Below are positions 3,148 to 39,273 of a stretch of 64,000 nt of DNA, in pieces. A program made the translations under genes and the position numbers. Origin of the DNA: an uncultured Fidelibacterota bacterium (GTDB lineage Bacteria; Fidelibacterota; Marinisomatia; Marinisomatales; UBA1611); the NCBI GenBank assembly GCA_913040915.1, contig CAJWHW010000006.1:1-64000 (forward strand), written 5' to 3'. How positions within the stretch are numbered: position 1 is the stretch's first letter; each line of letters opens with the position of its first letter. Under the pieces are notes generated by a model, which was given only the letters and a program-made list of their open reading frames with translations, ran no database searches and was not told the DNA's origin.

Positions 3148-5043
3148 ATGCTTTATCATCTATTTAATATTTTCGTCTCTGCATTAGCTTATTTTGGAGT
3201 ATTTTACTTCCATAGTGGATATATATATCTCCACAATAGCTATTCTTTATTTTTCCCAATTTATTTAGCTGTTTCCTTTTTATTCTCTATTTACTTTACT
3301 CCCAAAAACTATGTATTAAAGGATAGAACCCAATCAACTATACTGCAATTTATTTTTACCATTTTCAGTCTGAGTCTGGTGGTATCTTTGAGTGATTATT
3401 TTAATATTCCCCGTTATTTTATTTTCCTTGTTGTAGTTGTTCCCGTAGCCATCCGCTGGCTGATGGGATTTTATCACCATGATCCAAATAAAATTGACCA
3501 AGGTCTTAATTCTGCCAGGTCCAACTTTCAGTTTAAAAGGCTAAGTACCAGTTTTATTTTATTGATACTGGCATTTATCATTGCACTTTATTTCAAGACA
3601 GGCCGTATTGGCTATTATATTTGGTTAGAGAAGATAGTATTATTATTGATCGGCCTCTGGTGGGTTTCCAGCCATGTTACCCGGAAATTTTACGCATTGA
3701 ATGATCAGAATATTTATTATAAAATTGCTCCAATAATCAAATCCCAGGCCCTATTTCTATTATTTTCGTCTGGTATCTATTATTTTTTTAAATTGGATTT
3801 TCTTAGTCGACAATTATTTTTTGGAACGATTGGCGTATTTTCGCTTTTTGAAACAACTGTATTTTTAATTTTATTTATGAATAGAAAATCAAAGTCAAAC
3901 TTATACACTTATGAACCCTATATAATGGATCAGAATATACCATTCATCCCTGACGCGAATGGAAAAGTTATTCAGTCATTTGCAAAAAGTTGCTTATCGA
4001 AGATGCATCATTTTATTAAAGATGAAAGATTAATACGTTTTATAGATAATACATATAAATGTACTCAAAAGGAATGCAATCTGGATTCTTTTTTATATTT
4101 AACAACTAAAAAATTGGAAAATTTCCAGGGTATAAAAGACGAATCGCAATGTATATTGGTTAATATAACCTCCATAAATAATATTCTATCTATCAATCCC
4201 TTTTTACTGACCATGCGTCAAAAGATACAATCCGACGGTGTTCTGGTCGGTTCTTTCTCTCCTATGGAAGAGGATTATAAAAGGCTTAGAGATAAAATGC
4301 CCCGATTTTTATACACGCTGATTATCCCACTCCATTTTTTATTATATCGCATCTTCCCAAAAATCCCCATTATCAGTATTGTCTATGACTTCATTACACA
4401 GGGCAGGGGCAGGTTCCTGTCCAAAGCGGAAGTGTATGGCCGGCTCAGTTATTGCGGGTTTAAATTAATGGATTCAATTATGATTGATCATAAATTGTTC
4501 TTTATTGCCCAGCGTAAAGAATCAATTTCTACTGAACCAAACCCTTCTTTTGGCCCACTGGTTAAGCTTAAACGTGTAGGTTACGAAAATGAGATCGTTA
4601 CCATTTACAAATTCAGGACTATGCATCCTTATAGTGAATTCATCCAAAAGGACCTTTTTGATAAAAATAGCTTAACCGTTACAGGGAAATTCAAGGATGA
4701 TTTTCGCATTACATCTTGGGGCAAGGTATTCAGAAAATTATGGATAGATGAACTACCACAAATTTATAATTGGCTACGAGGTGATATATCCTTAATAGGT
4801 GTAAGAGCATTGAGCCAACATTATTTCTCTTTATACCCTAAGGATCTACAAAAATTACGAGTTCAATTTAAACCAGGGCTAATACCGCCTTATTATGCCG
4901 ATATGCCAAAGAATTTTGATGAGATTATTTTAAGTGAAAAACGATACTTAAATAAAAAAATCCAGAGTGGATTTTTAACCGATCTAATTTATTTTCTAAA
5001 TGCTTTAAATAACATTGTTTTTAAAGGTGCCAGAAGTCAATAG
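3148..5043 (+). CDS. Polyprenyl-phosphate sugar (priming) transferase with extended membrane N-terminus
   Basis: C-terminal Bac_transf motifs YKFRTM, DFRIT, RKLWIDELPQ, GVR, KPGL; about eight hydrophobic segments at the N-terminus. Confidence 0.85.
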   Translation: MLYHLFNIFVSALAYFGVFYFHSGYIYLHNSYSLFFPIYLAVSFLFSIYFTPKNYVLKDRTQSTILQFIFTIFSLSLVVSLSDYFNIPRYFIFLVVVVPVAIRWLMGFYHHDPNKIDQGLNSARSNFQFKRLSTSFILLILAFIIALYFKTGRIGYYIWLEKIVLLLIGLWWVSSHVTRKFYALNDQNIYYKIAPIIKSQALFLLFSSGIYYFFKLDFLSRQLFFGTIGVFSLFETTVFLILFMNRKSKSNLYTYEPYIMDQNIPFIPDANGKVIQSFAKSCLSKMHHFIKDERLIRFIDNTYKCTQKECNLDSFLYLTTKKLENFQGIKDESQCILVNITSINNILSINPFLLTMRQKIQSDGVLVGSFSPMEEDYKRLRDKMPRFLYTLIIPLHFLLYRIFPKIPIISIVYDFITQGRGRFLSKAEVYGRLSYCGFKLMDSIMIDHKLFFIAQRKESISTEPNPSFGPLVKLKRVGYENEIVTIYKFRTMHPYSEFIQKDLFDKNSLTVTGKFKDDFRITSWGKVFRKLWIDELPQIYNWLRGDISLIGVRALSQHYFSLYPKDLQKLRVQFKPGLIPPYYADMPKNFDEIILSEKRYLNKKIQSGFLTDLIYFLNALNNIVFKGARSQ

Positions 5044-5102
5044 TAAAAACAATCTTAATATATTTCTAAAAATATATTTCTTATTAAAATAATGTTACTG
5101 AA

Positions 5103-6479
5103 ATGATGTATGTTTATATTTTAGTTTATATCATAATTAATCTAATCAATTATGTTAAATCGCAAGAGATACCAACAGAATTTATTGAGAATGAAGTATT
5201 AGAGTATTCTTTCAATCTAGGTAAAAATTGGGATAGGAATACCACTCTTGGTTTGAACCGGTATTCGTATACCGATAAATTTAACAATATCAATTTTTCG
5301 ATTATTAATTCAAGGATCGGTATTCATACAATAAATGGATCGATTGCAATTTTTGGATATGGTAATTTTCAATATAATAATTTTTATTGTTTTATTTATC
5401 CTCGTATTGTGAATGATGTAACTGCGTTTGCTCGCTACTCCGGTATCCAAAGAGAGATAGACCGGACCGGATTTATTTCAGGAGAGACTGATCTTTCTGG
5501 TATTGGCTATGAAAATGAGTGGCTTATGGTTCAGTGGGGACGAGGAAGGGAAGAATGGAGTAGTGGGGAAGGCATATCTCTAGCTTTGAGTAATAATTCA
5601 TCCGCATATGACTATGGGGCACTAAAATTGTCATTTAATTCAGTTAGAGTTAAATACCTTCATGGCTTTTTAGAAAGTTTAGAAAATGGAGTGAACCGAT
5701 ACATTACTGCTCGTGGAATAGAATACACAAATAAGGAGTCATTAATTTTTGGTTTTTCTGAAGTAGTTATTTATTCTGGTGAAAATAGACCATTTGATAT
5801 AGGATATATGAACCCTATTTCTACTCATTTAGAAATTGAATTAAATGACCGCTTAAATAAAATAGGGTACAATCATGCTAATGCTGTTTGGCAGGCTAGT
5901 CTTGACTGGATGGCAAATAATAAGGTTAGAGTTTCCGGTAATATTTTATTTGATGAATTTGTCATTGATGATATTCAAAAAAATGCAGGCAAAGAACATG
6001 GTCTAGCCTATTCTGCTCGGGTTTCATATAGTCCTGTACATTCAGAAAATGTTAGTATTTCTGCATATGTACAACATATTAAGGTTGGTACTTCTACCTT
6101 CAGGCACGGAAATGGCACAAATAATTTTGTGATTAGGGAAAAACCCCTGGGTTGGCATCATGGTAGTGATGGCTTGGAATCTATGATTGGCATAAAAGTA
6201 AATTATAAAGATTCAATGTTGGCAGATATCAACATGGGGCAAAGAGAGACAGGTGATGAATCCATTTTATCTAACCCTTATATTCCATATATCGATTATT
6301 TATCAGGTCCGTTCCCTAGTGGCAATGTTGAAAAAAATATTTTTTTATTTTCCACTTTTAAATGGCATTGGAAACCATGGGTAAGATTTGAAAGTAGAAC
6401 GGATTGGTCTAAAGACGATGGTCTTGAAATATCCGCAGGTGTATTTTTATTTTTACCTAAAATGTTTGTTATTAAATAA
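5103..6479 (+). CDS. Capsule assembly Wzi-family outer-membrane protein
   Basis: QWGRGREEW, ALS, FSEVVIYSG, YMNP, FDEFVID, PLGW motifs resemble Wzi; last gene of the glycan locus. Confidence 0.65.
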   Translation: MMYVYILVYIIINLINYVKSQEIPTEFIENEVLEYSFNLGKNWDRNTTLGLNRYSYTDKFNNINFSIINSRIGIHTINGSIAIFGYGNFQYNNFYCFIYPRIVNDVTAFARYSGIQREIDRTGFISGETDLSGIGYENEWLMVQWGRGREEWSSGEGISLALSNNSSAYDYGALKLSFNSVRVKYLHGFLESLENGVNRYITARGIEYTNKESLIFGFSEVVIYSGENRPFDIGYMNPISTHLEIELNDRLNKIGYNHANAVWQASLDWMANNKVRVSGNILFDEFVIDDIQKNAGKEHGLAYSARVSYSPVHSENVSISAYVQHIKVGTSTFRHGNGTNNFVIREKPLGWHHGSDGLESMIGIKVNYKDSMLADINMGQRETGDESILSNPYIPYIDYLSGPFPSGNVEKNIFLFSTFKWHWKPWVRFESRTDWSKDDGLEISAGVFLFLPKMFVIK

Positions 6480-6542: not shown

Positions 6543-7451
6543 TTAAAGATTATAATCTAATCTAATTGCGACTCCTCCCCAATAGGTGGCACTACCATAT
6601 TTCAAATCAGAGCTCATGAATCCTTCTCCACCTATAAGAATATTAAAAGGAAGATTTAGACCTTTTTTCATCATATTTTCAAGTGAAATACCAGCGAAGC
6701 CTCTAAGTCCTGTAGCATCACCAACTAGACCAACATGACCTTCAGAAAATACAAGTCTAGCTAAGGTTAGATTTCCGCCTACACCTATTGCAAGGGGTGT
6801 GAATTCTTCACCTGTATTATGTTTCGCGGGGTAGGCACCAACTGTAGCACTTAACCCAAACCTGAGACTACCAAGATCAAAGCCCCACGGTGTAGTTATT
6901 ACTAAACTTCCACCCACTGGTATTTTATCAAAAAAGCTTCCTTGAACCAGTCCTGCGCTTCCAGAAATACCAATATTAAAACCAGGACCTTTATTTACAT
7001 AATGTTCTTCTTCAGAATTTGTTGTATCAGCAACAACGGCAGTTGCATCTCCAGCAGGAGTAGTATCAGCATCGACTGTACTTTCACCACCTTCTGAATC
7101 TAATTCTAATCCTAGCTCTGCAGCCATCTTTCTTTTTGCTTCATCAGCTGCAGCTTGTGCAGCAGCGTCAAGTTCAGCTTCTTCTGCTGCCTGCTTTTCA
7201 GCAAGTTTCCTAGCTTCTTCTTCTTCTTTTTTCCGTTTTGCTGCTTGCCGTGCTTCCTTAGCCGCTTTTTGAGCGGCGGCTTCGACTGCCGCTTCCTTAA
7301 GGGCTTCAGCTTCAGCGGCAGCTTTGTCAGCTGCTTCCTTTGCTTGCCGAGCTTTTTCTATTGGATCCACTTCTGTTTCAGATTGGGCAAAAGTGATGCC
7401 TAAAATTATTGTGCCTGCTAGCATATATTTAAATATTGACTTTATGATCAT
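6543..7451 (-). CDS. Hypothetical exported protein: Ala/Glu/Lys coiled coil plus predicted C-terminal beta-barrel
   Basis: Signal peptide (…ITFA|Q), about 90-aa A/E/K-rich stretch, acidic Thr linker, Gly-rich amphipathic strands ending RLDYNL. Confidence 0.6.
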   Translation of the reverse strand: MIIKSIFKYMLAGTIILGITFAQSETEVDPIEKARQAKEAADKAAAEAEALKEAAVEAAAQKAAKEARQAAKRKKEEEEARKLAEKQAAEEAELDAAAQAAADEAKRKMAAELGLELDSEGGESTVDADTTPAGDATAVVADTTNSEEEHYVNKGPGFNIGISGSAGLVQGSFFDKIPVGGSLVITTPWGFDLGSLRFGLSATVGAYPAKHNTGEEFTPLAIGVGGNLTLARLVFSEGHVGLVGDATGLRGFAGISLENMMKKGLNLPFNILIGGEGFMSSDLKYGSATYWGGVAIRLDYNL

Positions 7452-7566
7452 TATAGTACCTTATTTTATGTTACGTATAAACCCGTATAGGTAAAAAACT
7501 TAGAAGAAAAATACTATTCTTACAAGTATTTAAATTCTTTATCTATAATTAAATTTATGTTAATAA

Positions 7567-8112
7567 ATGATGTCTAATTTAAAAGAAATTAAACTGTACT
7601 CTCAATCTATATTTAAAGGTTGTTTATTAGATGTTCGAAAAGATTCTATCCAACTTCCAAATGGGAAAAAATCTACTCGTGAATGGATTAACCATCCCGG
7701 GGCTGTTTGTTGTATTCCAATACTACCAGATGGAAAATTAGCTCTTATTAAACAGTATCGGTATCCGGTACAATCTGAAATGATTGAATTTCCTGCCGGT
7801 AAACTAGACCCCAATGAAAACCCGGAAGATTGTGCTCTAAGAGAATTACAGGAAGAAATTGGATATCATACAAATAAACTAACTTTTCTAACAATCATTC
7901 ATCCTGCCATTGGGTTTGCCAATGAGAAAATGTGGCTTTATCTTGCAGAAGAACTGGTAGAGTCTCAAAAAAAATTAGATTCGGATGAATTTGTTGAATT
8001 AATACCAACAGAAATGGATAAAGCCTTGAATATGGTTTGGGATGGTAAAATTACCGATGTGAAAACAATTATCGGACTTTTATGGTTAGAAAAACTTAAA
8101 TTTCGAAAATAG
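7567..8112 (+). CDS. NUDIX hydrolase (ADP-ribose pyrophosphatase-like)
   Basis: Nudix box GKLDPNENPEDCALRELQEEIGY; QYRYP; DVKT. Confidence 0.9.
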   Translation: MMSNLKEIKLYSQSIFKGCLLDVRKDSIQLPNGKKSTREWINHPGAVCCIPILPDGKLALIKQYRYPVQSEMIEFPAGKLDPNENPEDCALRELQEEIGYHTNKLTFLTIIHPAIGFANEKMWLYLAEELVESQKKLDSDEFVELIPTEMDKALNMVWDGKITDVKTIIGLLWLEKLKFRK

Positions 8113-28000: not shown

Positions 28001-28963
28001 ATGACACAAATACCAGATGATGCAATCAAATGTCTAGATAAGGGGTTTGTACGGCTCGTGGATTCTATGGGTGGAGATAATGCCATTGTACAGGCAGCCC
28101 GGGTCAGTTATGGAAAAGGTACTAGTAAGTTATCTCAGGATCGTGGGCTTATCCGCTATCTTATGCGTCATCGACATACCACTCCTTTTGAAATGGTAGA
28201 ATTTAAATTTCATTGTAAAATGCCCATTTTTGTTGCTCGTCAGTGGGTGCGCCACCGTACCGCCAACATCAATGAATATTCCCTTCGCTATTCAGAAGCT
28301 AGGGATGAATTTTATTATCCTGATCCGAAGCATATTCAATTTCAATCTGGGTTAAATAAGCAAGGTCGTTTGGGTGAAGTTTCGGCGGAGTTGAAGCAAA
28401 AGGTTCAAGATTATTTCAAGGAGATCTCTGAAAAAAGTTTTGCCATGTATTCCGATTTAAATGATGCTGGTGTGGCTCGAGAACTTGCCCGTGCTATTCT
28501 TCCCGTTAATCTTTATACTGAATGGTATTGGAAGAATGATCTTCACAATCTGCTTCATTTTATAGGTCTTCGATCTGATAGCCATGCTCAATATGAGATT
28601 CAGGTATTTTCTGATGCGATGGCAGAATCGGTGAAATCTGTAGCGCCTTTCGCTTGGGAAGCCTATCAGGATTATGTAGTAAAAGGCATGCATTTTTCCC
28701 GCATTGAGCAGGGTCTCCTGGAACAATCTCTCCCAGATCGTATCATCGATGACATTAATGAAGATCTGACTTACCAGCTTATAGCAACTCTTCACCATAA
28801 TAAGCCACGGGAAGATGAAGAACTTTATAATCTTTACCAAAAACAGGGTGGTTCTGATTCAGAAAAGGATTTCCATTTAAAGTGGAACTCAGGTGAAATT
28901 AAGATTGGAAATGTAAGGGAATTGCGTGAATTCAAAGCCAAGCTGGAGAGTCTAAAAAACTAA
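28001..28963 (+). CDS. thyX: Flavin-dependent thymidylate synthase
   Basis: AARVSY, HTTPFE, RQWVRHRTANINEYSLRY, ELARAILP, HAQYEI. Confidence 0.95.
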   Translation: MTQIPDDAIKCLDKGFVRLVDSMGGDNAIVQAARVSYGKGTSKLSQDRGLIRYLMRHRHTTPFEMVEFKFHCKMPIFVARQWVRHRTANINEYSLRYSEARDEFYYPDPKHIQFQSGLNKQGRLGEVSAELKQKVQDYFKEISEKSFAMYSDLNDAGVARELARAILPVNLYTEWYWKNDLHNLLHFIGLRSDSHAQYEIQVFSDAMAESVKSVAPFAWEAYQDYVVKGMHFSRIEQGLLEQSLPDRIIDDINEDLTYQLIATLHHNKPREDEELYNLYQKQGGSDSEKDFHLKWNSGEIKIGNVRELREFKAKLESLKN

Positions 28964-29026
28964 TTTCGGTACCATAACATGGATAGGTGATGAATATTTG
29001 TCTAAATTTTAAGCTCTGTGGTATCT

Positions 29027-29386
29027 ATGACTAATAAAAACGAAGGCCATCCCCATCAGCTGTGGGAAAAGTTCTTAAAAAGTAGTCTAGATAGTTTCTA
29101 TAACTATGAAATTATTGAGTTTCTGTTTACCATTGGTACTCAAAAAAAGACCATAAGCAATTTGGACCAATAAAGACTGCCTTGGAAGCATCCCTTGCAG
29201 ATTTTTAAACATTCGACTCAATGGAGATAACATTTTATTTGGGTTTAAGATAAACCAAGTCAGGATGATATGGCTATAACTAAAAAATTGAAAGAAGGAA
29301 CTCAATCAATAGACATATCAATACATGGTTATTTAATCATTATAGGAAATGATGGTTATTCATTTGTAGAACACTGATTGATTTAG
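29027..29386 (+). pseudogene. radC: Degraded radC (JAB/MPN family) with internal deletion
   Basis: 5' fragment EGHPHQLWEKFLKSSLDSFYNYEIIEFLF; 3' fragment PSQDDMAITKKLKEG…IHGYLIII…YSF; stops, frameshifts and a missing core. Confidence 0.75.
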
Positions 29387-29450
29387 TTGCTGTAAAATTC
29401 ACAATAGTGTATAAATTTTTTAACTTTGATAATATCTTACGTTAATTAAA

Positions 29451-31664
29451 ATGTCCTTATTTAATAGAGCAGAAGTCGTTGATTTAAACTTTACTTCTCA
29501 TGTAAAGTCAGGCAACTTTCCTCCAGAAAAGACACATTTAAGTTTATCTCAGACTGATATAAGACCATCCCAATTAATTTCCATTTTTGAATCTCAGGTG
29601 TTAAGTCGCCACATGGATTTAAAAGCTCGGCTTTTAAAAGAAGAAGGGAAATGTTTTTATACAATCGGCTGTTCGGGGCATGAAGGGAATGCTGTATTTG
29701 GCCAAGTATTCCCCTATACAGATATGGCTTTTCTTCATTACCGTTCCGGTCCTTTATTCATTGAACGGTCTAAACAAATTAGCAGATCCACTCCAATTTA
29801 TGATATGGCTTTATCTTTCATGGCATCTTCTGAAGACCCTATCAGCGGAGGTCGTCACAAAGTCATTGGCAGCAAAGAGCTAAATATTCCACCACAGACC
29901 AGTACAATTTCTAGCCATTTACCGAAAGCTGTGGGAACTGCCTTTTCCATCGACCGTGCTAAAGATCTAGACATTCAGGAGAGAATCCTCAAAGAGAATA
30001 GTATTGTGATCTGTAGTTTTGGAGATGCCAGCGTTAACCATGCAACTGCTTTAAGTGCTTTTAACACTGTAAGTTGGGTTACTGCTCATGGTGGTCATGT
30101 GCCCATTATTTTTATCTGTGAAGATAACGGTACCGGTATTTCTGTTCCTACGGATAAAAAATGGGTCGAACAAAATTTTAAGAACTGCCAGGGGATCGCT
30201 TACATTCAAACTGACGGTCTTCACCTTATTGATCTAATTATGAAATCCCGACAAGCAGATCATGATTGCCGTATCAATCGATCGCCTATTTTTATCCATA
30301 TGAAAACCGTTCGGCTCATGGGGCATGCAGGATCTGATGTTGAATTAGGGTACCGATCTATTGCTGATATTGAAAGGGATGAATTTAATGACCCTTTGCT
30401 CCATTCATCACGCATTCTAATAGAAAATAAATGTTTATCTGGTGGTGAAATTTTATCTCTCTATGAGTCATCGAGAGAACAGGTAAACCATGTTTTTGAT
30501 TCAGTTACCCAAAGGCCCAAATTAGATAATGCTAAAAGTGTAATGGCCACTATCACTGCAAATAAATTCAGTCGATCTTTACCATTTCATTCCAGAAATA
30601 AGGAACGCAAAGCTCTTTTTGGGAAAGAGTTCAAAAGATTAGATCAGGCTCAGCATATGGCCAAGCTTATTAACTATGCACTGTCTGATATTATGTTGCG
30701 CTATAAGAATACCTTGGTATTCGGTGAAGATGTAGCCCAGAAAGGCGGTGTATATCATGTAACCGCTGATCTTTATAAACAGTTTGGAGTTCGTCGTGTA
30801 TTTAACAGTCCCTTGGATGAAACATCAATTATCGGTTTCGGTATCGGTTTCAGTCATAATGGGTTTATTCCGATACCGGAAATTCAATTTTTGGCCTATC
30901 TACATAATGCAGAAGATCAACTTCGGGGTGAAGCAGCTACATTACCCTTTTTCTCAGAAGGACGTTTTACAAATCCCATGGTATTACGTGTTCCGGGTCT
31001 TGCTTATCAAAAAGGTTTTGGTGGCCATTACCATAACGATAATTCTTTAACTATATTTCGTGATATTCCTGGAATCATTCTGGCTGTGCCATCCAATGGG
31101 GCCGATGCTGTAAAAATGCTTCGGACTGCCGTAAAGGAAGCCTACAAGAATGGACGTGTAGTTGTTTTTATAGAACCCATTGCACTCTATATGACCAAAG
31201 ACCTCTACAAACCAAAAGATAGGAGATGGAGTTTTCAATATCCGGATCTAAAAGATGAGATTCCTGTTGGAGAATTCGTCAGTTATGGAAATGGGAAAAT
31301 ACTCACCATTATCACATACGGAAATGGTTTATACCTATCGCTAAAAGCTCAAAAGGAGATTGAGAAACAATTAAACAAAAAGATCAAAGTAATCGATCTG
31401 AGATGGCTCTCAGATATTGATATTCCTAATTTGCTAAAAGCTATAGGCACTAGTGAAAATGTACTGATCGTAGATGAATGTCGTCGAACTGGCTGCCATG
31501 GAGAAGGCTTGGTAACTCAGTTGGTTACTGCAGCAAATAAACCACTAAATATTCAACTCCACGCAGCTGAAGATAGTTTTATTCCACTGGGTATTGCCGC
31601 AACTGCCACACTCCCCAGTAAACAGTCTATCATTGATAAGGCTCTGGAGTTAGTGAATGTTTAA
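29451..31664 (+). CDS. Fused E1 alpha/beta thiamine-diphosphate-dependent 2-oxoacid dehydrogenase
   Basis: LHYR, GGRH, ThDP motif GDAS…EDN, GHAGSD; beta part GEDVAQKGGV, PLDE, EIQFLAY, GGHYHN, IEP. Confidence 0.88.
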   Translation: MSLFNRAEVVDLNFTSHVKSGNFPPEKTHLSLSQTDIRPSQLISIFESQVLSRHMDLKARLLKEEGKCFYTIGCSGHEGNAVFGQVFPYTDMAFLHYRSGPLFIERSKQISRSTPIYDMALSFMASSEDPISGGRHKVIGSKELNIPPQTSTISSHLPKAVGTAFSIDRAKDLDIQERILKENSIVICSFGDASVNHATALSAFNTVSWVTAHGGHVPIIFICEDNGTGISVPTDKKWVEQNFKNCQGIAYIQTDGLHLIDLIMKSRQADHDCRINRSPIFIHMKTVRLMGHAGSDVELGYRSIADIERDEFNDPLLHSSRILIENKCLSGGEILSLYESSREQVNHVFDSVTQRPKLDNAKSVMATITANKFSRSLPFHSRNKERKALFGKEFKRLDQAQHMAKLINYALSDIMLRYKNTLVFGEDVAQKGGVYHVTADLYKQFGVRRVFNSPLDETSIIGFGIGFSHNGFIPIPEIQFLAYLHNAEDQLRGEAATLPFFSEGRFTNPMVLRVPGLAYQKGFGGHYHNDNSLTIFRDIPGIILAVPSNGADAVKMLRTAVKEAYKNGRVVVFIEPIALYMTKDLYKPKDRRWSFQYPDLKDEIPVGEFVSYGNGKILTIITYGNGLYLSLKAQKEIEKQLNKKIKVIDLRWLSDIDIPNLLKAIGTSENVLIVDECRRTGCHGEGLVTQLVTAANKPLNIQLHAAEDSFIPLGIAATATLPSKQSIIDKALELVNV

Positions 31665-32673
31665 ACAACGAATCGTTGTCGTTTGTCCGGGTAGGGGAAC
31701 CTATACTCGGGAAACAATCGGTTACCTTAAAACCTATGGGAAATCTGCAAAAGATCAGATTAACTGGATAGATGGGCAGCGAGAATCCACAGATCTCCTA
31801 ACACTTACCGATTTGGATAATCAACCATTCAAGACCAAGATTCATATGGCAGGAGAACATGCTTCTCCACTGATCTATGCGTGTAGTTTATCAGATTTTC
31901 TGTCTATTGATCAAAGCAAATTTGAAATTGTAGCCATAACAGGAAATTCCATGGGTTGGTATATTGCACTAGCTTTGTGCGGTGCTGTGTCTTACAAAAA
32001 TGCTTATCACCTTATTCAAACTATGGGTTCTATGATGATAGATGGTATTATTGGTGGACAAATCATTTATCCAATTATGGATGAACATTTTCATTTAGAT
32101 CCGGAAAAAAGTTCAATAGCAATGGCAGAAATAGAAAAAGCCGGTGCTTATGTATCTATTTATCTTGGTGGGTATCTGGTTATTGGGGGTGATCAAAAAG
32201 TATTGGATATACTATTGAAAAAACTTCCGCAGGAAGACAAATATCCTTTTCAACTTCCATACCATGGTGCTTTTCACACACCTTTAATGAAAAATATTTC
32301 GGCAAAGGGTCTCGCTACTCTTGAACCATCTTTATTTCAAAAACCGGTGATTCCAATGGTGGACGGGAGGGGATATATTTGGTCACCTTATTCTACGGAC
32401 ATATTTGAGTTACATCAATATACCCTTGGTCATCAAGTAACAAAATCTTATGATTTTTCTTCAGCTATCATGATAGCTATGAAAGAATTTTGTCCGGATA
32501 AACTGGTTTTATTGGGTCCTGGAAATACGTTGGGTGGTGTCGTGGCACAAATTATGATCCAAAATAAATGGCAGGATATAGATTCAAAATTTGTATTTAG
32601 GAAAAAACAAAAAAAAGATCCTTATCTCATATCTATGGGAATAGAAGAACAAAGAAAACTGATATGCACATAG
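31657..32673 (+). CDS. Divergent FabD-like acyltransferase
   Basis: CPGRG (for FPGQG), GNSMG nucleophile elbow (for GHSxG), GAFHTPLM, LGPG; overlaps the E1 stop. Confidence 0.8.
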   Translation: MFKQRIVVVCPGRGTYTRETIGYLKTYGKSAKDQINWIDGQRESTDLLTLTDLDNQPFKTKIHMAGEHASPLIYACSLSDFLSIDQSKFEIVAITGNSMGWYIALALCGAVSYKNAYHLIQTMGSMMIDGIIGGQIIYPIMDEHFHLDPEKSSIAMAEIEKAGAYVSIYLGGYLVIGGDQKVLDILLKKLPQEDKYPFQLPYHGAFHTPLMKNISAKGLATLEPSLFQKPVIPMVDGRGYIWSPYSTDIFELHQYTLGHQVTKSYDFSSAIMIAMKEFCPDKLVLLGPGNTLGGVVAQIMIQNKWQDIDSKFVFRKKQKKDPYLISMGIEEQRKLICT

Positions 32674-33791
32674 ATAGGAAAGTTGAGATTCTTGATTCAA
32701 CACTTCGAGAAGGAGAGCAGACACCTGGAGTATCCTTTTCCGTTGATCAAAAAATAGCATTGGCTAAACGATTGGATGCTTTCGGGGTAGATTTTATTGA
32801 GATGGGACACCCGGCTGTTTCTCCAGATGTTTATGAAAGTGTAGAAGCATTAAATGATCTGAGTCTCTGTGCTAATAAAGTTGCTCATGGTAGGGCGGCA
32901 AAATCAGATATCAACGATGCTTTGGCCATTGGAGTAGAATGGATAGGGATATTTTTTGGCACATCAGCCATCAGTTTGAAACATAAATTCAATGTGGATC
33001 GGCCAACGGCCCTACGGCGAATCAGAGAAGCAGTGACATACGGGAAAGATAAAGGATTAAAACTTCGTTTTACGGCAGAAGATGCCAGTCGTACTGACAT
33101 CGATTTTCTAATACAAGTGGCGCAGTTGGTCCAATCCTGCGGAGCAGACCGATTCAGTCTAGCAGATACAGTTGGCTGTCTAACTCCGACAAAAACATAT
33201 AAACTTGTGAAGAGTGTAAAATCGGAATTGGATATTCCCATTCACGTTCATTGCCATAATGATTTAGGATTAGCCACAGCAAATACCTTATCTGCTTTGG
33301 AAGCTGGAGCCCAATGTGTGGATGTGGCAGTAAATGGTCTGGGTGAGCGCTGCGGATTAGCGCCTTTGGCAGAAGTGGTGACAGTCTTAGTGAATATTTA
33401 TAAAGTGAATAGACAATGGGAATTATGTTTAATCCCTGAATTAACGGAACTGGTTACAGAATTTTCCCAATTGGATGCAGGAGATAATCAACCGGTTACA
33501 GGCAAGAATGCATTTTCCCATAAGGCCGGGCTCCATGTAAAAGCGGTGGTTAAAGACCCCAGATCCTATGAAGCTATTTCGCCCGAATCTATCAATCGCA
33601 CACGCAAGCTGGTTATAGACAAATACACAGGACGGGATGCCATCAAATATAAATTTGAATCTCTCAGTATAGTTCTAGATGAGAAGGATTTGGCTGCTGT
33701 TTTACAATGTATCAAAACCAAACCTGAAAAATTGAATTGGACGGATGTTGAACTTATTTCTCATGCTAAATCATTAGGGATTAAGGTGTAA
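32664..33791 (+). CDS. Homocitrate synthase-like DRE-TIM enzyme (no LeuA regulatory domain)
   Basis: DSTLREGEQ, RFTAEDASR, LADTVG, HCHNDLG, GLGERCG, HKAGLH, YE; 375 aa. Confidence 0.75.
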   Translation: MHIDRKVEILDSTLREGEQTPGVSFSVDQKIALAKRLDAFGVDFIEMGHPAVSPDVYESVEALNDLSLCANKVAHGRAAKSDINDALAIGVEWIGIFFGTSAISLKHKFNVDRPTALRRIREAVTYGKDKGLKLRFTAEDASRTDIDFLIQVAQLVQSCGADRFSLADTVGCLTPTKTYKLVKSVKSELDIPIHVHCHNDLGLATANTLSALEAGAQCVDVAVNGLGERCGLAPLAEVVTVLVNIYKVNRQWELCLIPELTELVTEFSQLDAGDNQPVTGKNAFSHKAGLHVKAVVKDPRSYEAISPESINRTRKLVIDKYTGRDAIKYKFESLSIVLDEKDLAAVLQCIKTKPEKLNWTDVELISHAKSLGIKV

Positions 33792-33819: not shown

Positions 33820-34992
33820 ATGAAGAAATATGGCCCTGATTATTACGATATAACTGATCTTCTGAGTGAAGAAGAATTGCTCATACAGCAAACGGCCTAT
33901 GATTTCGTCCAGACGGAATTCATGCCGATCATAAGTAAACACTATGAAAAAGCCACTTTTCCCATGGAACTTGTACCTAAGTTAGGAGAACTTGGTTTTA
34001 TGGGATCATCTTTGCCTGAAGAATCCGGTGGTGCAGGTGTAAGCAGTGTTGCCTATGGATTGATTCTCCATGAGTTAGAACGAGGGGATTCGGGTCTTCG
34101 CTCATTTGCCAGTGTACAGGGAGCATTGGTTATGTATCCCATACATGCCTATGGTTCTGATGAACAAAAAGCTAAATGGCTTCCTGCATTGGGTTCTGGT
34201 GAAAAGATCGGCTGTTTCGGACTAACAGAACCGAACTTTGGATCTAACCCCGGGGGTATGGCTACCAAAGCTATAAGGGAAGGAGATGAATGGATTATTA
34301 GCGGAAATAAAATGTGGATCACGAATGGTTCATTAGCTGATGTTGCAGTGGTATGGGCCAAAGATGAAGAAGGTATTGTTCGGGGCTTTTTATTAGAAAA
34401 GGGAATAGACGGGTTTTCTGCACCGGTGCAGCATGGAAAATTGAGCCTTAGAGCTTCAGTTACATCGGAGCTTGTTATGGAAAATGTCCGGGTCCCTGAT
34501 TCATCACGACTACCCAATATAGAAGGGTTGAAGGGCCCCTTGAGTTGTCTGACCCAGGCACGTTATGGTATCTCCTGGGGAATGGTGGGTGCTGCTACAG
34601 ACTGCTATAATACAGCATTGGATTATTCTAAAGATAGGAAACAATTTTCCAAGCCCATTGCAGGATATCAGCTTACACAAGCAAAGCTTGCGGATATGGT
34701 TACCTTAATCACTGAAGCACAGTTATTGGTTTATCGTTTAGGAAGACTCAAAGATGAAGGTACTATGACTTTTCAGCAGGTATCTATGGCAAAGCGGAAT
34801 AACTGTTCCATGGCCCGTGATATTGCAAAAACGTCTAGGGAAATTTTAGGCGCAAATGGTATTACAGAAGACTATTCACCTATTAGGCACATGGCCAATA
34901 TTGAATCAGTGTTCACTTATGAAGGAACACATGAGATGCACACTCTGATCTTAGGACAGGATGTAACTGGCTTTGCCGCTTATGATTCATAG
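33820..34992 (+). CDS. gcdH: Glutaryl-CoA dehydrogenase
   Basis: ELERGDSGLRS, FGLTEP, KMWITN, LSLRASVT, CLTQARYGISWG, MAKRNN, TYEGT. Confidence 0.85.
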   Translation: MKKYGPDYYDITDLLSEEELLIQQTAYDFVQTEFMPIISKHYEKATFPMELVPKLGELGFMGSSLPEESGGAGVSSVAYGLILHELERGDSGLRSFASVQGALVMYPIHAYGSDEQKAKWLPALGSGEKIGCFGLTEPNFGSNPGGMATKAIREGDEWIISGNKMWITNGSLADVAVVWAKDEEGIVRGFLLEKGIDGFSAPVQHGKLSLRASVTSELVMENVRVPDSSRLPNIEGLKGPLSCLTQARYGISWGMVGAATDCYNTALDYSKDRKQFSKPIAGYQLTQAKLADMVTLITEAQLLVYRLGRLKDEGTMTFQQVSMAKRNNCSMARDIAKTSREILGANGITEDYSPIRHMANIESVFTYEGTHEMHTLILGQDVTGFAAYDS

Positions 34993-37410: not shown

Positions 37411-39273
37411 TCAAGGGACATAGTCCTCTAAATACTTTAGCATTTTTGTCTGTTTTTTTAGCCATCCCAACCGAGTCTCCAATAATATGTAACGTATATC
37501 ATGGCGAAGGGCTGCCCATGATAGAGAGCCATCATCTATTGGTTTCCATTTTTCCTGAAGCACAACATTATATGGTGACTTTGCCAGTATTTTGAAATCA
37601 TTCGCGTTAGTGCAAAGGAAAAAATCTCTGGGGTTTTGATCTTCCTTAATTGATATAGAATCACTATTATCAATTTCTTTATGTACGTTGTAACCTCTAA
37701 AATTATTATGTATGGCCACAATCACACCTCCATTTTGAGGAAAAATCTCTTCTAAAAATTCATTCCTTTCCTGATTGATATTAGTCAAAATTTCCTTTTT
37801 TTTAGTATTGGACCAATGGATGTTATATTTATTAATGTTGTCCAATGTTCCATCTGATGAAAATATACGATTAGGATCAATAAGACCGCCATGATAACTT
37901 ATTTCTCGATCATCATTTTGGATGAAATAAGCTGTCCCAGAACTATTTTTCATATGTGCATCTAGTGCCATATAAGCTGTTTTTTCATCACCATGGAACC
38001 AAATATATTTTCTGTCTCTATTGCCATTCTTCACTATATCAAACTTTATTCCTCCAATTTCAACTATCTTTTTTATTTGTTTTTCTATTTCTAGCATTTC
38101 ATCTATATGCTGGATTACTTCACGTAATGTAATTTTTGTTGCTTTGTTTGCAACATCCCAATCCACAAGTCCGCCGATATGAATATGCCCGGCAGCAACA
38201 CAATCCATCCCGAGTGAATCCAAAAATGTTTTATACCACACACCTTGATACCCAAGAATTTCAGATAAGTAGCCCATTGAGCTTTCATGATAATCCACAT
38301 ATGAATTGAGACCTAGTTCTGCCTCATTAATGGATTTTACGATACGGCCTGTTGGTAGAGAAGAATAAAGTATTTTCTCATCATATAAATAGTTTTCTGA
38401 TATATTTCCAATTGTATCATCTATCCAAAGAAAACGATTTGAATTATGCCATTCAAGCTCCCAACTGTAGTCTATATATCCTCTACTAAATGTAATAATT
38501 GCTACTGGATTCAGTAACTCTACACTGTCCCAAAAATTTTCAAAAGTCTTTTCAATATCTATTTCAAAAGCTCCTTTTCCTTTTCCACAATTTCCACAAT
38601 CCTTTGGATCAAACTCTGGAAAATAGGAATAAATATCATAACCTCGATTTTCCCAATTTTCTCCAATCCAACCATCTGGATTAGTTAAGAGGCTTTTACT
38701 GAATGGACGTATTGCTTCATTAGAAGGAGGCCAATAACCACATAACAAAATATTTTTACTATGAATAGATTTTTCAAGGTCGTTTTTTGGTTTATCTAAT
38801 ACCATAGTTGAAGGGTATACAGAAGAGATTAGCTCTTTAAAGGGAAAAATTGGTTTGGTGCCAGACGGTACAGAAATTTCTATGAGAATTGATTGACTCT
38901 TTATTTGTCCAGTTACATTTGAATGATGATGTTGCATAATATTTTTTGTATAAGGTCCAACCCACCCACCTGTATTTAAATTAACTATATAGATAGAAGT
39001 ACTATCGGTTAGGGCTGAATCAATAATCTTAAAATGAATGGACTTTTCATCATCTAATGATATTATTAAATGATAGATTTCTTTATTATTGTGTTCTGTT
39101 GGTTCTAAAAACTGAATCAAATCACTTGGGAAAGAGGAAGGCACATCCATTTTAAGTTGATGAATTTCATCACTTAATTTCATTTTCAAATAAATTGGTT
39201 CACCATATGGTATTTCTTGTCCCCAAATTTTTAAGCTAAATATCAAAAAAAGTATCAATTCGCGTTTCAGCAT
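37411..39273 (-). CDS. Exported multidomain hypothetical peptidase (pyroglutamyl-peptidase-like plus Zn-carboxypeptidase-like)
   Basis: ILLCGYWPP, ELE, SSLP, GYLSE and GHIH (C15-like); HGDE, DPNRIF, AIHNN and DDGSLS (M14-like). Confidence 0.55.
   Translation of the reverse strand: MLKRELILFLIFSLKIWGQEIPYGEPIYLKMKLSDEIHQLKMDVPSSFPSDLIQFLEPTEHNNKEIYHLIISLDDEKSIHFKIIDSALTDSTSIYIVNLNTGGWVGPYTKNIMQHHHSNVTGQIKSQSILIEISVPSGTKPIFPFKELISSVYPSTMVLDKPKNDLEKSIHSKNILLCGYWPPSNEAIRPFSKSLLTNPDGWIGENWENRGYDIYSYFPEFDPKDCGNCGKGKGAFEIDIEKTFENFWDSVELLNPVAIITFSRGYIDYSWELEWHNSNRFLWIDDTIGNISENYLYDEKILYSSLPTGRIVKSINEAELGLNSYVDYHESSMGYLSEILGYQGVWYKTFLDSLGMDCVAAGHIHIGGLVDWDVANKATKITLREVIQHIDEMLEIEKQIKKIVEIGGIKFDIVKNGNRDRKYIWFHGDEKTAYMALDAHMKNSSGTAYFIQNDDREISYHGGLIDPNRIFSSDGTLDNINKYNIHWSNTKKKEILTNINQERNEFLEEIFPQNGGVIVAIHNNFRGYNVHKEIDNSDSISIKEDQNPRDFFLCTNANDFKILAKSPYNVVLQEKWKPIDDGSLSWAALRHDIRYILLETRLGWLKKQTKMLKYLEDYVP

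Follow-up and report, generated by a model that had tools for sequence, protein, structure and literature searches.

How does an E1 component of a 2-oxoacid dehydrogenase pass on its acyl group when it is encoded beside a FabD-like acyltransferase (AT) and without a dihydrolipoyl acyltransferase (E2) or dihydrolipoyl dehydrogenase (E3)? This question is raised by a locus in a 64,000 nt stretch of DNA (positions 1 to 64,000 of contig CAJWHW010000006.1, assembly GCA_913040915.1; the window) from an uncultured bacterium of the Fidelibacterota, or Marinimicrobia. The source is a metagenome-assembled genome of 1.86 Mb that is 85% complete, a limit that applies to all whole-genome negatives given here. 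A first-pass annotation of the window had described an intact fused alpha/beta E1 gene whose stop codon overlaps the start of the AT gene, and had reported that no E2, E3 or acyl carrier protein (ACP) gene lies in the cluster. Both open reading frames (ORFs) are as it described them, with an overlap of 8 nt. A domain scan of the 19 ORFs between 19 and 42 kb of the window likewise identified no gene for an E2, E3, lipoyl protein or ACP; the genome's only E2 and E3 found are carried on contig C29 and its ACP on contig C9. We report here that the pairing of E1 with AT is far beyond chance, and we propose, with moderate confidence, that the two proteins form a two-subunit module in which 2-oxoadipate is oxidatively decarboxylated to glutaryl-CoA, which is then converted to crotonyl-CoA by glutaryl-CoA dehydrogenase (GCDH).

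Based on its domains and its fold model, the window E1 is a fused-form member of the alpha/beta class of 2-oxoacid dehydrogenase E1 proteins, for which lipoyl-dependent activity is predicted. It scores above the Pfam cut-offs for E1_dh (89.3 bits, cut-off 22), Transket_pyr (71.8 bits, cut-off 27) and Transketolase_C (45.2 bits, cut-off 25.9), and both its domain set and its best matches are those of the alpha/beta class and not of the SucA/DHTKD1 class. The solved E1 proteins that are most similar to it in sequence are of the pyruvate dehydrogenase (PDH) and branched-chain 2-oxoacid dehydrogenase (BCKDH) types, while its identity to the canonical fused E1 of the same genome (contig C29) is 28%. 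The structural model has a predicted local distance difference test score (pLDDT) of 89.5 and is confident save for two active-site loops. Like the heterotetramer-class E1 proteins 1w85, human E1b (1dtw) and that of Thermus thermophilus (1um9), the window E1 has the same domain set, a thiamine diphosphate (ThDP) site and two active-site histidines, and its beta half fits theirs with TMt values of 0.90-0.93 (0.93 for T. thermophilus E1-beta). It differs from them in having the alpha and beta parts fused in one chain, in carrying an insertion (residues 108-117) at the predicted AT interface and in having no adjacent E2 or E3 gene.

Residue conservation was assessed in 44 E1 and AT sequences of the pair family, which were also used for the co-inheritance counts. 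The E1 residues D192, N226, E457, H292 and H528 are invariant in all 44 sequences, as is the motif G191-D192...E224-D225-N226 as a whole. The G191-D192...N226 residues bind ThDP and Mg, and E457 is the cofactor-activating glutamate. In alignments, His291 of human E1b-alpha is the counterpart of H292, and His128 of Geobacillus stearothermophilus E1-beta that of H528; we take these two positions to be the histidines that serve the reductive acylation of lipoyl-lysine.

The downstream partner of this E1 is a predicted serine acyltransferase of the FabD fold. The three motifs that had been read in its sequence are all present: CPGRG at residues 10-14, GNSMG at residues 96-100 and GAFH at residues 204-207. 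The AT model (pLDDT 96.6) has the two-subdomain fold, the G-x-S-x-G elbow and the catalytic histidine of FabD, with template modelling (TM) scores of 0.74-0.79 to FabD structures (E. coli 1mla and relatives) at an identity of 15-21%. It differs from these proteins in a 3-residue DGRG insertion and approximately 30 additional C-terminal residues. Against the fabD model TIGR00128, AT scores 47.9 bits (E-value: 1.3e-12), far below the cut-off of 260.9 bits; no Pfam domain matches it at E ≤ 0.001, and Acyl_transf_1 is absent even at E ≤ 10.

R13, S98, M123, H207 and Q260 of AT are retained in 44 of 44 sequences. S98 and H207 align with the Ser-His dyad of FabD, but the arginine with which FabD binds malonyl (Arg117 in E. 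coli) is Met123 in every AT, and the glutamine of the FabD PGQG loop (the Gln11 equivalent) is in every case Arg13. As judged from these alignments, AT therefore looks active, yet not built for malonyl; Arg13 might instead contact the far carboxylate group of a longer dicarboxylic substrate. A genuine fabD gene (347 bits) adjoins the ACP gene on contig C9, and so the window AT is not the housekeeping FabD of this genome. Relatives of AT are named "ACP S-malonyltransferase" in public databases, and the ESM Atlas likewise returned only clusters of such proteins. This label is probably wrong, and the earlier suggestion that AT is distinct in sequence from a plain malonyl-CoA:ACP transacylase is borne out by both the score and the methionine.

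A gene-neighbourhood survey had been suggested as a check of whether E1 and AT are constantly paired. In a collection with one genome per species, AT relatives are encoded on at least 598 stretches, some of them from the culturable Shewanella, Colwellia, Thalassotalea and Halomonas; the AT family forms 111 clusters at 50% identity (E ≤ 1e-30). Locus counts given here refer to the best 80 of these stretches, which belong to Marinimicrobia, Bdellovibrionota, Alteromonadales and other Gammaproteobacteria, and Alphaproteobacteria. In 79 of the 80 loci, a fused E1 gene immediately precedes the AT gene on the same strand, and the 80th ends at a contig edge. The two genes overlap by 4 or 8 nt in 46 of these 79 loci, and AT, unlike FabD, is never found in a fab cluster. 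No E2 or E3 gene is conserved beside the pair in these 80 loci. In one Fidelibacterota/Marinimicrobia chromosome (locus L014), E1 and AT stand 731 nt apart (7270-8000), with all ORFs in the spacer being 62 aa or shorter.

Within the phylum, E1 orthologues (62-100% identity) are present in seven of 151 sampled genomes, and AT is present in six of these seven. A further 44 genomes contain matches at E ≤ 1e-60, all of which are merely 30-34% identical to the window E1. The E1-AT unit is accordingly an accessory one in this phylum. Where the pair occurs, its members travel together: pairwise identities among E1 proteins correlate with those among AT proteins (r = 0.86 over 946 pairs, compared to a maximum of 0.18 in 500 label shuffles), which shows joint inheritance and nothing more. 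A physical union of the two is seen in the library protein P0244, a 595 aa fragment in which an E1 C-terminus (28% identity to residues 510-714 of the window E1), a Pro/Ser-rich linker some 50 residues long and an AT (31% identity to residues 5-242) form one chain. A separate search for long fused AT forms, covering proteins of 593-2000 aa, gave none at E ≤ 1e-20, which is weak evidence.

Structure prediction of the E1-AT complex, another check that had been suggested, supports binding of the two proteins at the level of a model. Residues 76-737 of E1 were modelled with AT, using an alignment of 44 rows for each partner. The interface score ipSAE (median of three runs) was 0.77, while the best of three controls reached 0.00. 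For reference, 116 of 157 solved complexes attain this mark, as do 2 of 215 mismatched pairs; the counts are only roughly valid here because our own alignments were used. Contact agreement among the runs was at least 94% and the pLDDT of the partner chain was at least 91. We know of no solved complex of an E1 with FabD that the model could have memorised. The predicted interface lies at the periphery of the E1 alpha part and involves E1 residues 108-117 and the helix 329-352, together with AT residues 5, 92, 238-245 and 266-279. Two of these segments are associated with features specific to the pair: at E1 108-117, five residues are inserted that both the canonical fused E1 and human E1b-alpha lack, and AT 238-245 follows the 3-residue insertion relative to FabD. 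Conservation in the predicted interface is high at T114 of E1 (42 of 44 sequences) and at G239 and E277 of AT (43 and 44 of 44, respectively).

The genes following AT, which had gone unmentioned in the first-pass annotation, provide the indication of substrate. The features of the locus are listed in Table 1.

Table 1. Position, strand and characteristics of the E1-AT pair and of other features of the window
Feature	Coordinates	Strand	Characteristics
Fused alpha/beta ThDP-dependent E1	29451..31664	+	737 aa; divergent paralogue of canonical E1
FabD-fold serine acyltransferase (AT), predicted	31657..32673	+	338 aa; 8-nt overlap with E1
Homocitrate-synthase-like (HCS-like) gene	32664..33791	+	375 aa; overlaps AT stop by 10 nt
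Glutaryl-CoA dehydrogenase (GCDH)	33820..34992	+	390 aa; 28 nt past HCS-like gene
ThyX homologue	28001-28963	+	320 aa
Spacer upstream of E1	28964-29450		about 490 nt
Putative decayed coding remnant	29240-29378	+	within spacer upstream of E1
Uncharacterized ORF	37411-39273	-	620 aa

Among solved proteins, the ten best matches of the GCDH (398-475 bits) comprise nine named glutaryl-CoA dehydrogenase (one of them "putative") and one acyl-CoA dehydrogenase; human GCDH (1sir) scores 400 bits and the next class scores 258 bits. A GCDH gene adjoins the pair at less than 1.4 kb in 60 of the 80 loci, and its placement takes three forms: 32 loci have it upstream in the orientation of the pair, 7 have it upstream and divergent, and 21 have it downstream. 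In one other locus it is 3.3 kb away, and in 12 the flanks are too short. As GCDH acts on glutaryl-CoA, its adjacency suggests this ester as the product of the pair, which in turn points to 2-oxoadipate as what E1 decarboxylates.

The HCS-like protein scores 417.2 bits against TIGR02146 (cut-off 413.55), and its best solved relative is the homocitrate synthase 6ktq (329 bits). It possesses a histidine that aligns with His72 of T. thermophilus homocitrate synthase; three homocitrate synthase structures have histidine at this position, while the isopropylmalate synthase structure 3rmj has leucine. The gene is separate from three further HMGL-like paralogues elsewhere in the genome. It lies between AT and GCDH in nine of the 80 loci, all of them from close Marinimicrobia, and is thus a clade-specific insert. 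Homocitrate is converted to 2-oxoadipate via homoaconitase and homoisocitrate dehydrogenase, and the presence of an HCS-like gene in the operon points to 2-oxoadipate from the biosynthetic side. Taken together, the HCS-like gene and GCDH downstream make 2-oxoadipate the likely substrate and CoA a likelier acceptor than ACP. Of the two acceptors that had originally been offered, CoA or ACP, these neighbours thus favour the former and make the latter less likely.

Additional neighbour context was obtained from seven further loci, four of which showed nothing relevant. In Halomonas sp. M20 (L086), a LysR gene and an HglS gene (4086-5477, + strand; PF07063, 2-oxoadipate dioxygenase/decarboxylase, 560 bits) are found directly upstream of E1, the HglS gene adjoining the pair under the LysR regulator with no GCDH nearby; HglS and the pair seem to offer 2-oxoadipate two different fates at a single locus. 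The gene order in Hoeflea is GCDH, E1, AT, a saccharopine-dehydrogenase-like gene and LysR, and in Nitrincola an aldehyde dehydrogenase gene and a class-III aminotransferase gene are situated beside the pair. Across the 80 loci, the only recurrent neighbour besides GCDH is a LysR regulator (22 loci). No flavoprotein, ferredoxin or other oxidant-related gene besides GCDH is conserved near the pair, and neither an ACP nor a ketosynthase gene occurs near it in any of the 80 loci. There is also no conserved small ORF (the best small-ORF cluster, from 5 of the 80 loci, is unrelated), and hence no private lipoyl carrier or ACP. In the window genome, lysW (the LysW context of the aminoadipate lysine pathway), lysA and a saccharopine-dehydrogenase-like gene (Sacchrp_dh_C) were not found, so that the operon cannot be assigned here to either the making or the breakdown of lysine.

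Lipoyl groups could be supplied from elsewhere in the genome. Contig C29 contains a canonical operon of E3, fused E1 and E2 genes, and GcvH is encoded on contig C13; lipoyl machinery is therefore available in trans. An E2 census of 41 pair-bearing genomes identified an E2 gene elsewhere in all 41, with none lacking it. An E2 gene that is not conserved beside the pair but present elsewhere in each genome is consistent with the borrowing of lipoyl groups. Given the E2 in 41 of 41 genomes, the resident operon and GcvH, a lipoyl domain borrowed from E2 is no less likely than the free GcvH-like carrier that had been proposed at first.

The analysis shows the gene order, the conservation of the pair, the two folds, the retention of catalytic residues and a predicted interface of E1 with AT; in the following scheme we infer which 2-oxoacid is used, which protein carries the lipoyl group, and in which direction and to which acceptor the acyl group moves. 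The ThDP-dependent E1 would decarboxylate 2-oxoadipate and would then reductively glutarylate a lipoyl-lysine that the single E2 or GcvH would provide in trans. AT, docked on the E1 alpha part, would transfer glutaryl from the dihydrolipoyl thiol to Ser98 of its Ser98-His207 dyad and from there to CoA. The lipoyl group would be re-oxidised by the resident E3, and glutaryl-CoA would be converted to crotonyl-CoA by the adjacent GCDH. In the Marinimicrobia clade, the HCS-like enzyme may feed the module from 2-oxoglutarate and acetyl-CoA. In this scheme, AT would be a private CoA-transferase working with borrowed lipoyl groups and E3, by analogy with actinobacterial OdhA. More tentatively, and with more doubt than belief, we suggest that the FabD-fold AT is a non-homologous replacement of the E2 catalytic core in a widespread 2-oxoadipate dehydrogenase, in which the acyl group would pass from a borrowed dihydrolipoyl arm via an acyl-Ser to CoA, and that in this Marinimicrobia clade the enzyme is coupled to the HCS-like protein in a path from 2-oxoglutarate through 2-oxoadipate and glutaryl-CoA to crotonyl-CoA without the 2-oxoglutarate dehydrogenase complex.

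Several points weigh against such a module. In genome G107, a 148-aa ORF and then the contig end come after the E1 orthologue, and AT was not found there with the query used. The modelled complex contains one truncated E1 chain (76-737), though E1 proteins of this class act as dimers. None of the 80 loci encodes a lipoyl carrier with the pair, so that the identity of the carrier is a guess, and H292 and H528 could serve an acceptor other than lipoyl. The genome's own E2 could perform the CoA transfer, leaving AT another role. GCDH is not nearby in 7 of the 80 loci, all with long flanks, and with no saccharopine-dehydrogenase-like gene found, no lysine route to 2-oxoadipate was detected in the window genome.

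Other functions for the pair were also considered. If the resident E2 both lent its lipoyl arm and carried out the transfer to CoA, AT could be a helper that clears glutaryl groups from borrowed lipoyl arms, a thioesterase or editing enzyme similar to ABHD11. The presence of E2 in every pair-bearing genome checked agrees with this, as does the existence of FabD-fold acyl hydrolases (PksD is among the fold matches of AT). There is also a precedent: the serine enzyme ABHD11 has as its substrate the glutaryl thioester of protein-bound dihydrolipoyl groups, and animals need this dedicated enzyme for glutaryl-lipoyl adducts (PMC12643935). ABHD11 differs from AT in having an alpha/beta-hydrolase fold, in hydrolysing rather than transferring the acyl group and in not being bound to E1. 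We consider a helper role unlikely, since the tight translational coupling, the predicted stoichiometric interface and the P0244 fusion fit a catalytic partner better, and since releasing free glutarate would leave nothing for the adjacent GCDH, which requires the CoA ester. Slightly less likely still is a lipoyl-independent reaction, in which the ThDP enamine would be oxidised by another acceptor and Ser98 of AT, or CoA bound to AT, would take the acyl group directly from acyl-ThDP. The lack of a carrier gene beside the pair and the predicted seat of AT on E1 itself are in keeping with this reaction; however, the two histidines that we take to serve lipoyl acylation are invariant, lipoyl machinery is present in all genomes checked, GCDH is the only oxidant-related gene conserved nearby and the interface is predicted at the periphery of the alpha part.

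A different substrate for E1 (for example 2-oxoglutarate, 2-oxopimelate or a branched-chain acid), with only a regulatory or syntenic link to GCDH, has a small probability in our estimation. The substrate has been deduced from neighbours only, the loci with long flanks and no GCDH are compatible with another acid, and the closest solved E1 proteins in sequence are of PDH and BCKDH types. Nevertheless, GCDH is adjacent across phyla and in three arrangements, the HglS, HCS-like and saccharopine-dehydrogenase-like neighbours all concern 2-oxoadipate or lysine, and canonical complexes for other acids are already present in the genomes. It is very improbable that AT charges ACP for a biosynthetic purpose, such as making glutaryl-ACP for the pimelate part of biotin. 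ACP is the usual partner of FabD-fold enzymes, the opposite strand carries a biotin-protein ligase gene 4.3 kb downstream, and the BioZ route reportedly draws glutaryl-CoA from lysine catabolism, but the neighbourhoods of the pair are devoid of ACP and ketosynthase genes, its constant partner is the catabolic GCDH, and the LysR regulators and catabolic neighbours fit degradation. Finally, a role for AT as an ordinary malonyl-CoA:ACP transacylase that neighbours E1 by chance was rejected as barely credible. The public naming of its relatives speaks for this role, and against it are a score far short of the fabD cut-off with no Acyl_transf_1 match, the methionine and arginine that replace Arg117 and Gln11 throughout the family, the true fabD beside ACP on contig C9 and the near-universal position of AT behind E1.

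Among known systems, actinobacterial OdhA is the closest architectural analogue of the proposed two-subunit module. OdhA is an E1 with a private acyltransferase domain and without a lipoyl domain; its lipoyl groups come in trans from E2p, the E2 of another complex, and E3 is shared (PMC10415282). OdhA is a SucA-class protein, covalently fused to an E2 catalytic domain of the chloramphenicol-acetyltransferase-like type (PF00198), and its substrate is 2-oxoglutarate. In contrast, the window pair has an E1 of the alpha/beta class and a separate FabD-fold serine AT, its proposed substrate is 2-oxoadipate and a supply of lipoyl in trans is proposed here from gene content. With a FabD-fold serine enzyme as the acyltransferase, catalysis would be expected to run through a covalent acyl-Ser intermediate.

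The animal 2-oxoadipate dehydrogenase complex (DHTKD1 as E1a, borrowed DLST as E2o and DLD as E3) resembles the proposed module in catalysing the same proposed reaction, followed by GCDH, and in an E1 that uses components of another complex. It differs in that DHTKD1 is a SucA-class homodimer without a dedicated acyltransferase, to which the window E1 is similar only at the level of fold (13-14% identity).

To our knowledge, all 2-oxoacid dehydrogenase systems transfer the acyl group to CoA via an E2 core of the chloramphenicol-acetyltransferase type. In the literature searched (which covered few subscription journals and no supplements), we found no report of an E1 paired with a FabD-like enzyme; the same literature, with its few subscription journals, yielded no assignment of a gene to the bacterial conversion of 2-oxoadipate to glutaryl-CoA. 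If the proposed module is correct, an E1-bound FabD-fold enzyme would be a second, unrelated solution to the CoA transfer step, and genes would be assigned to the 2-oxoadipate to glutaryl-CoA step of bacterial lysine and tryptophan breakdown.

Several other features of the window and of related loci were recorded. The 620-aa ORF listed in Table 1 matches no Pfam or NCBIfam family; it is flanked by an asparaginase-like gene and the biotin-protein ligase gene. A promoter and terminator scan predicted 29 and 7 sites, respectively, compared to 29.3 and 5.7 in shuffled sequences, and is uninformative on the limits of the operon. The spacer upstream of E1 gave no Rfam matches at E ≤ 1, and a conserved non-coding element, considered as a candidate for this spacer, was rejected because none was visible in an alignment with six related loci. 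Part of the spacer instead looks like a decayed coding remnant: its frame ends in ...PSQDDMAITKKLKEGTQSIDISIHGYLIIIGNDGYSFVEH* and resembles intact small ORFs of two other loci (L016 and L018). By eye, it looks similar to the C-terminus of a RadC/JAB-type protein, a tentative label. In the ThyX homologue preceding the spacer, the Thy1 domain covers only residues 18-216, and about 100 C-terminal residues are outside it. The 148-aa ORF that follows the E1 orthologue of G107 is located at 91-537 on the minus strand of contig C53 (L101), which ends 90 nt beyond it; judged by eye, this ORF resembles an IS200/REP-associated tyrosine transposase, again a tentative label.

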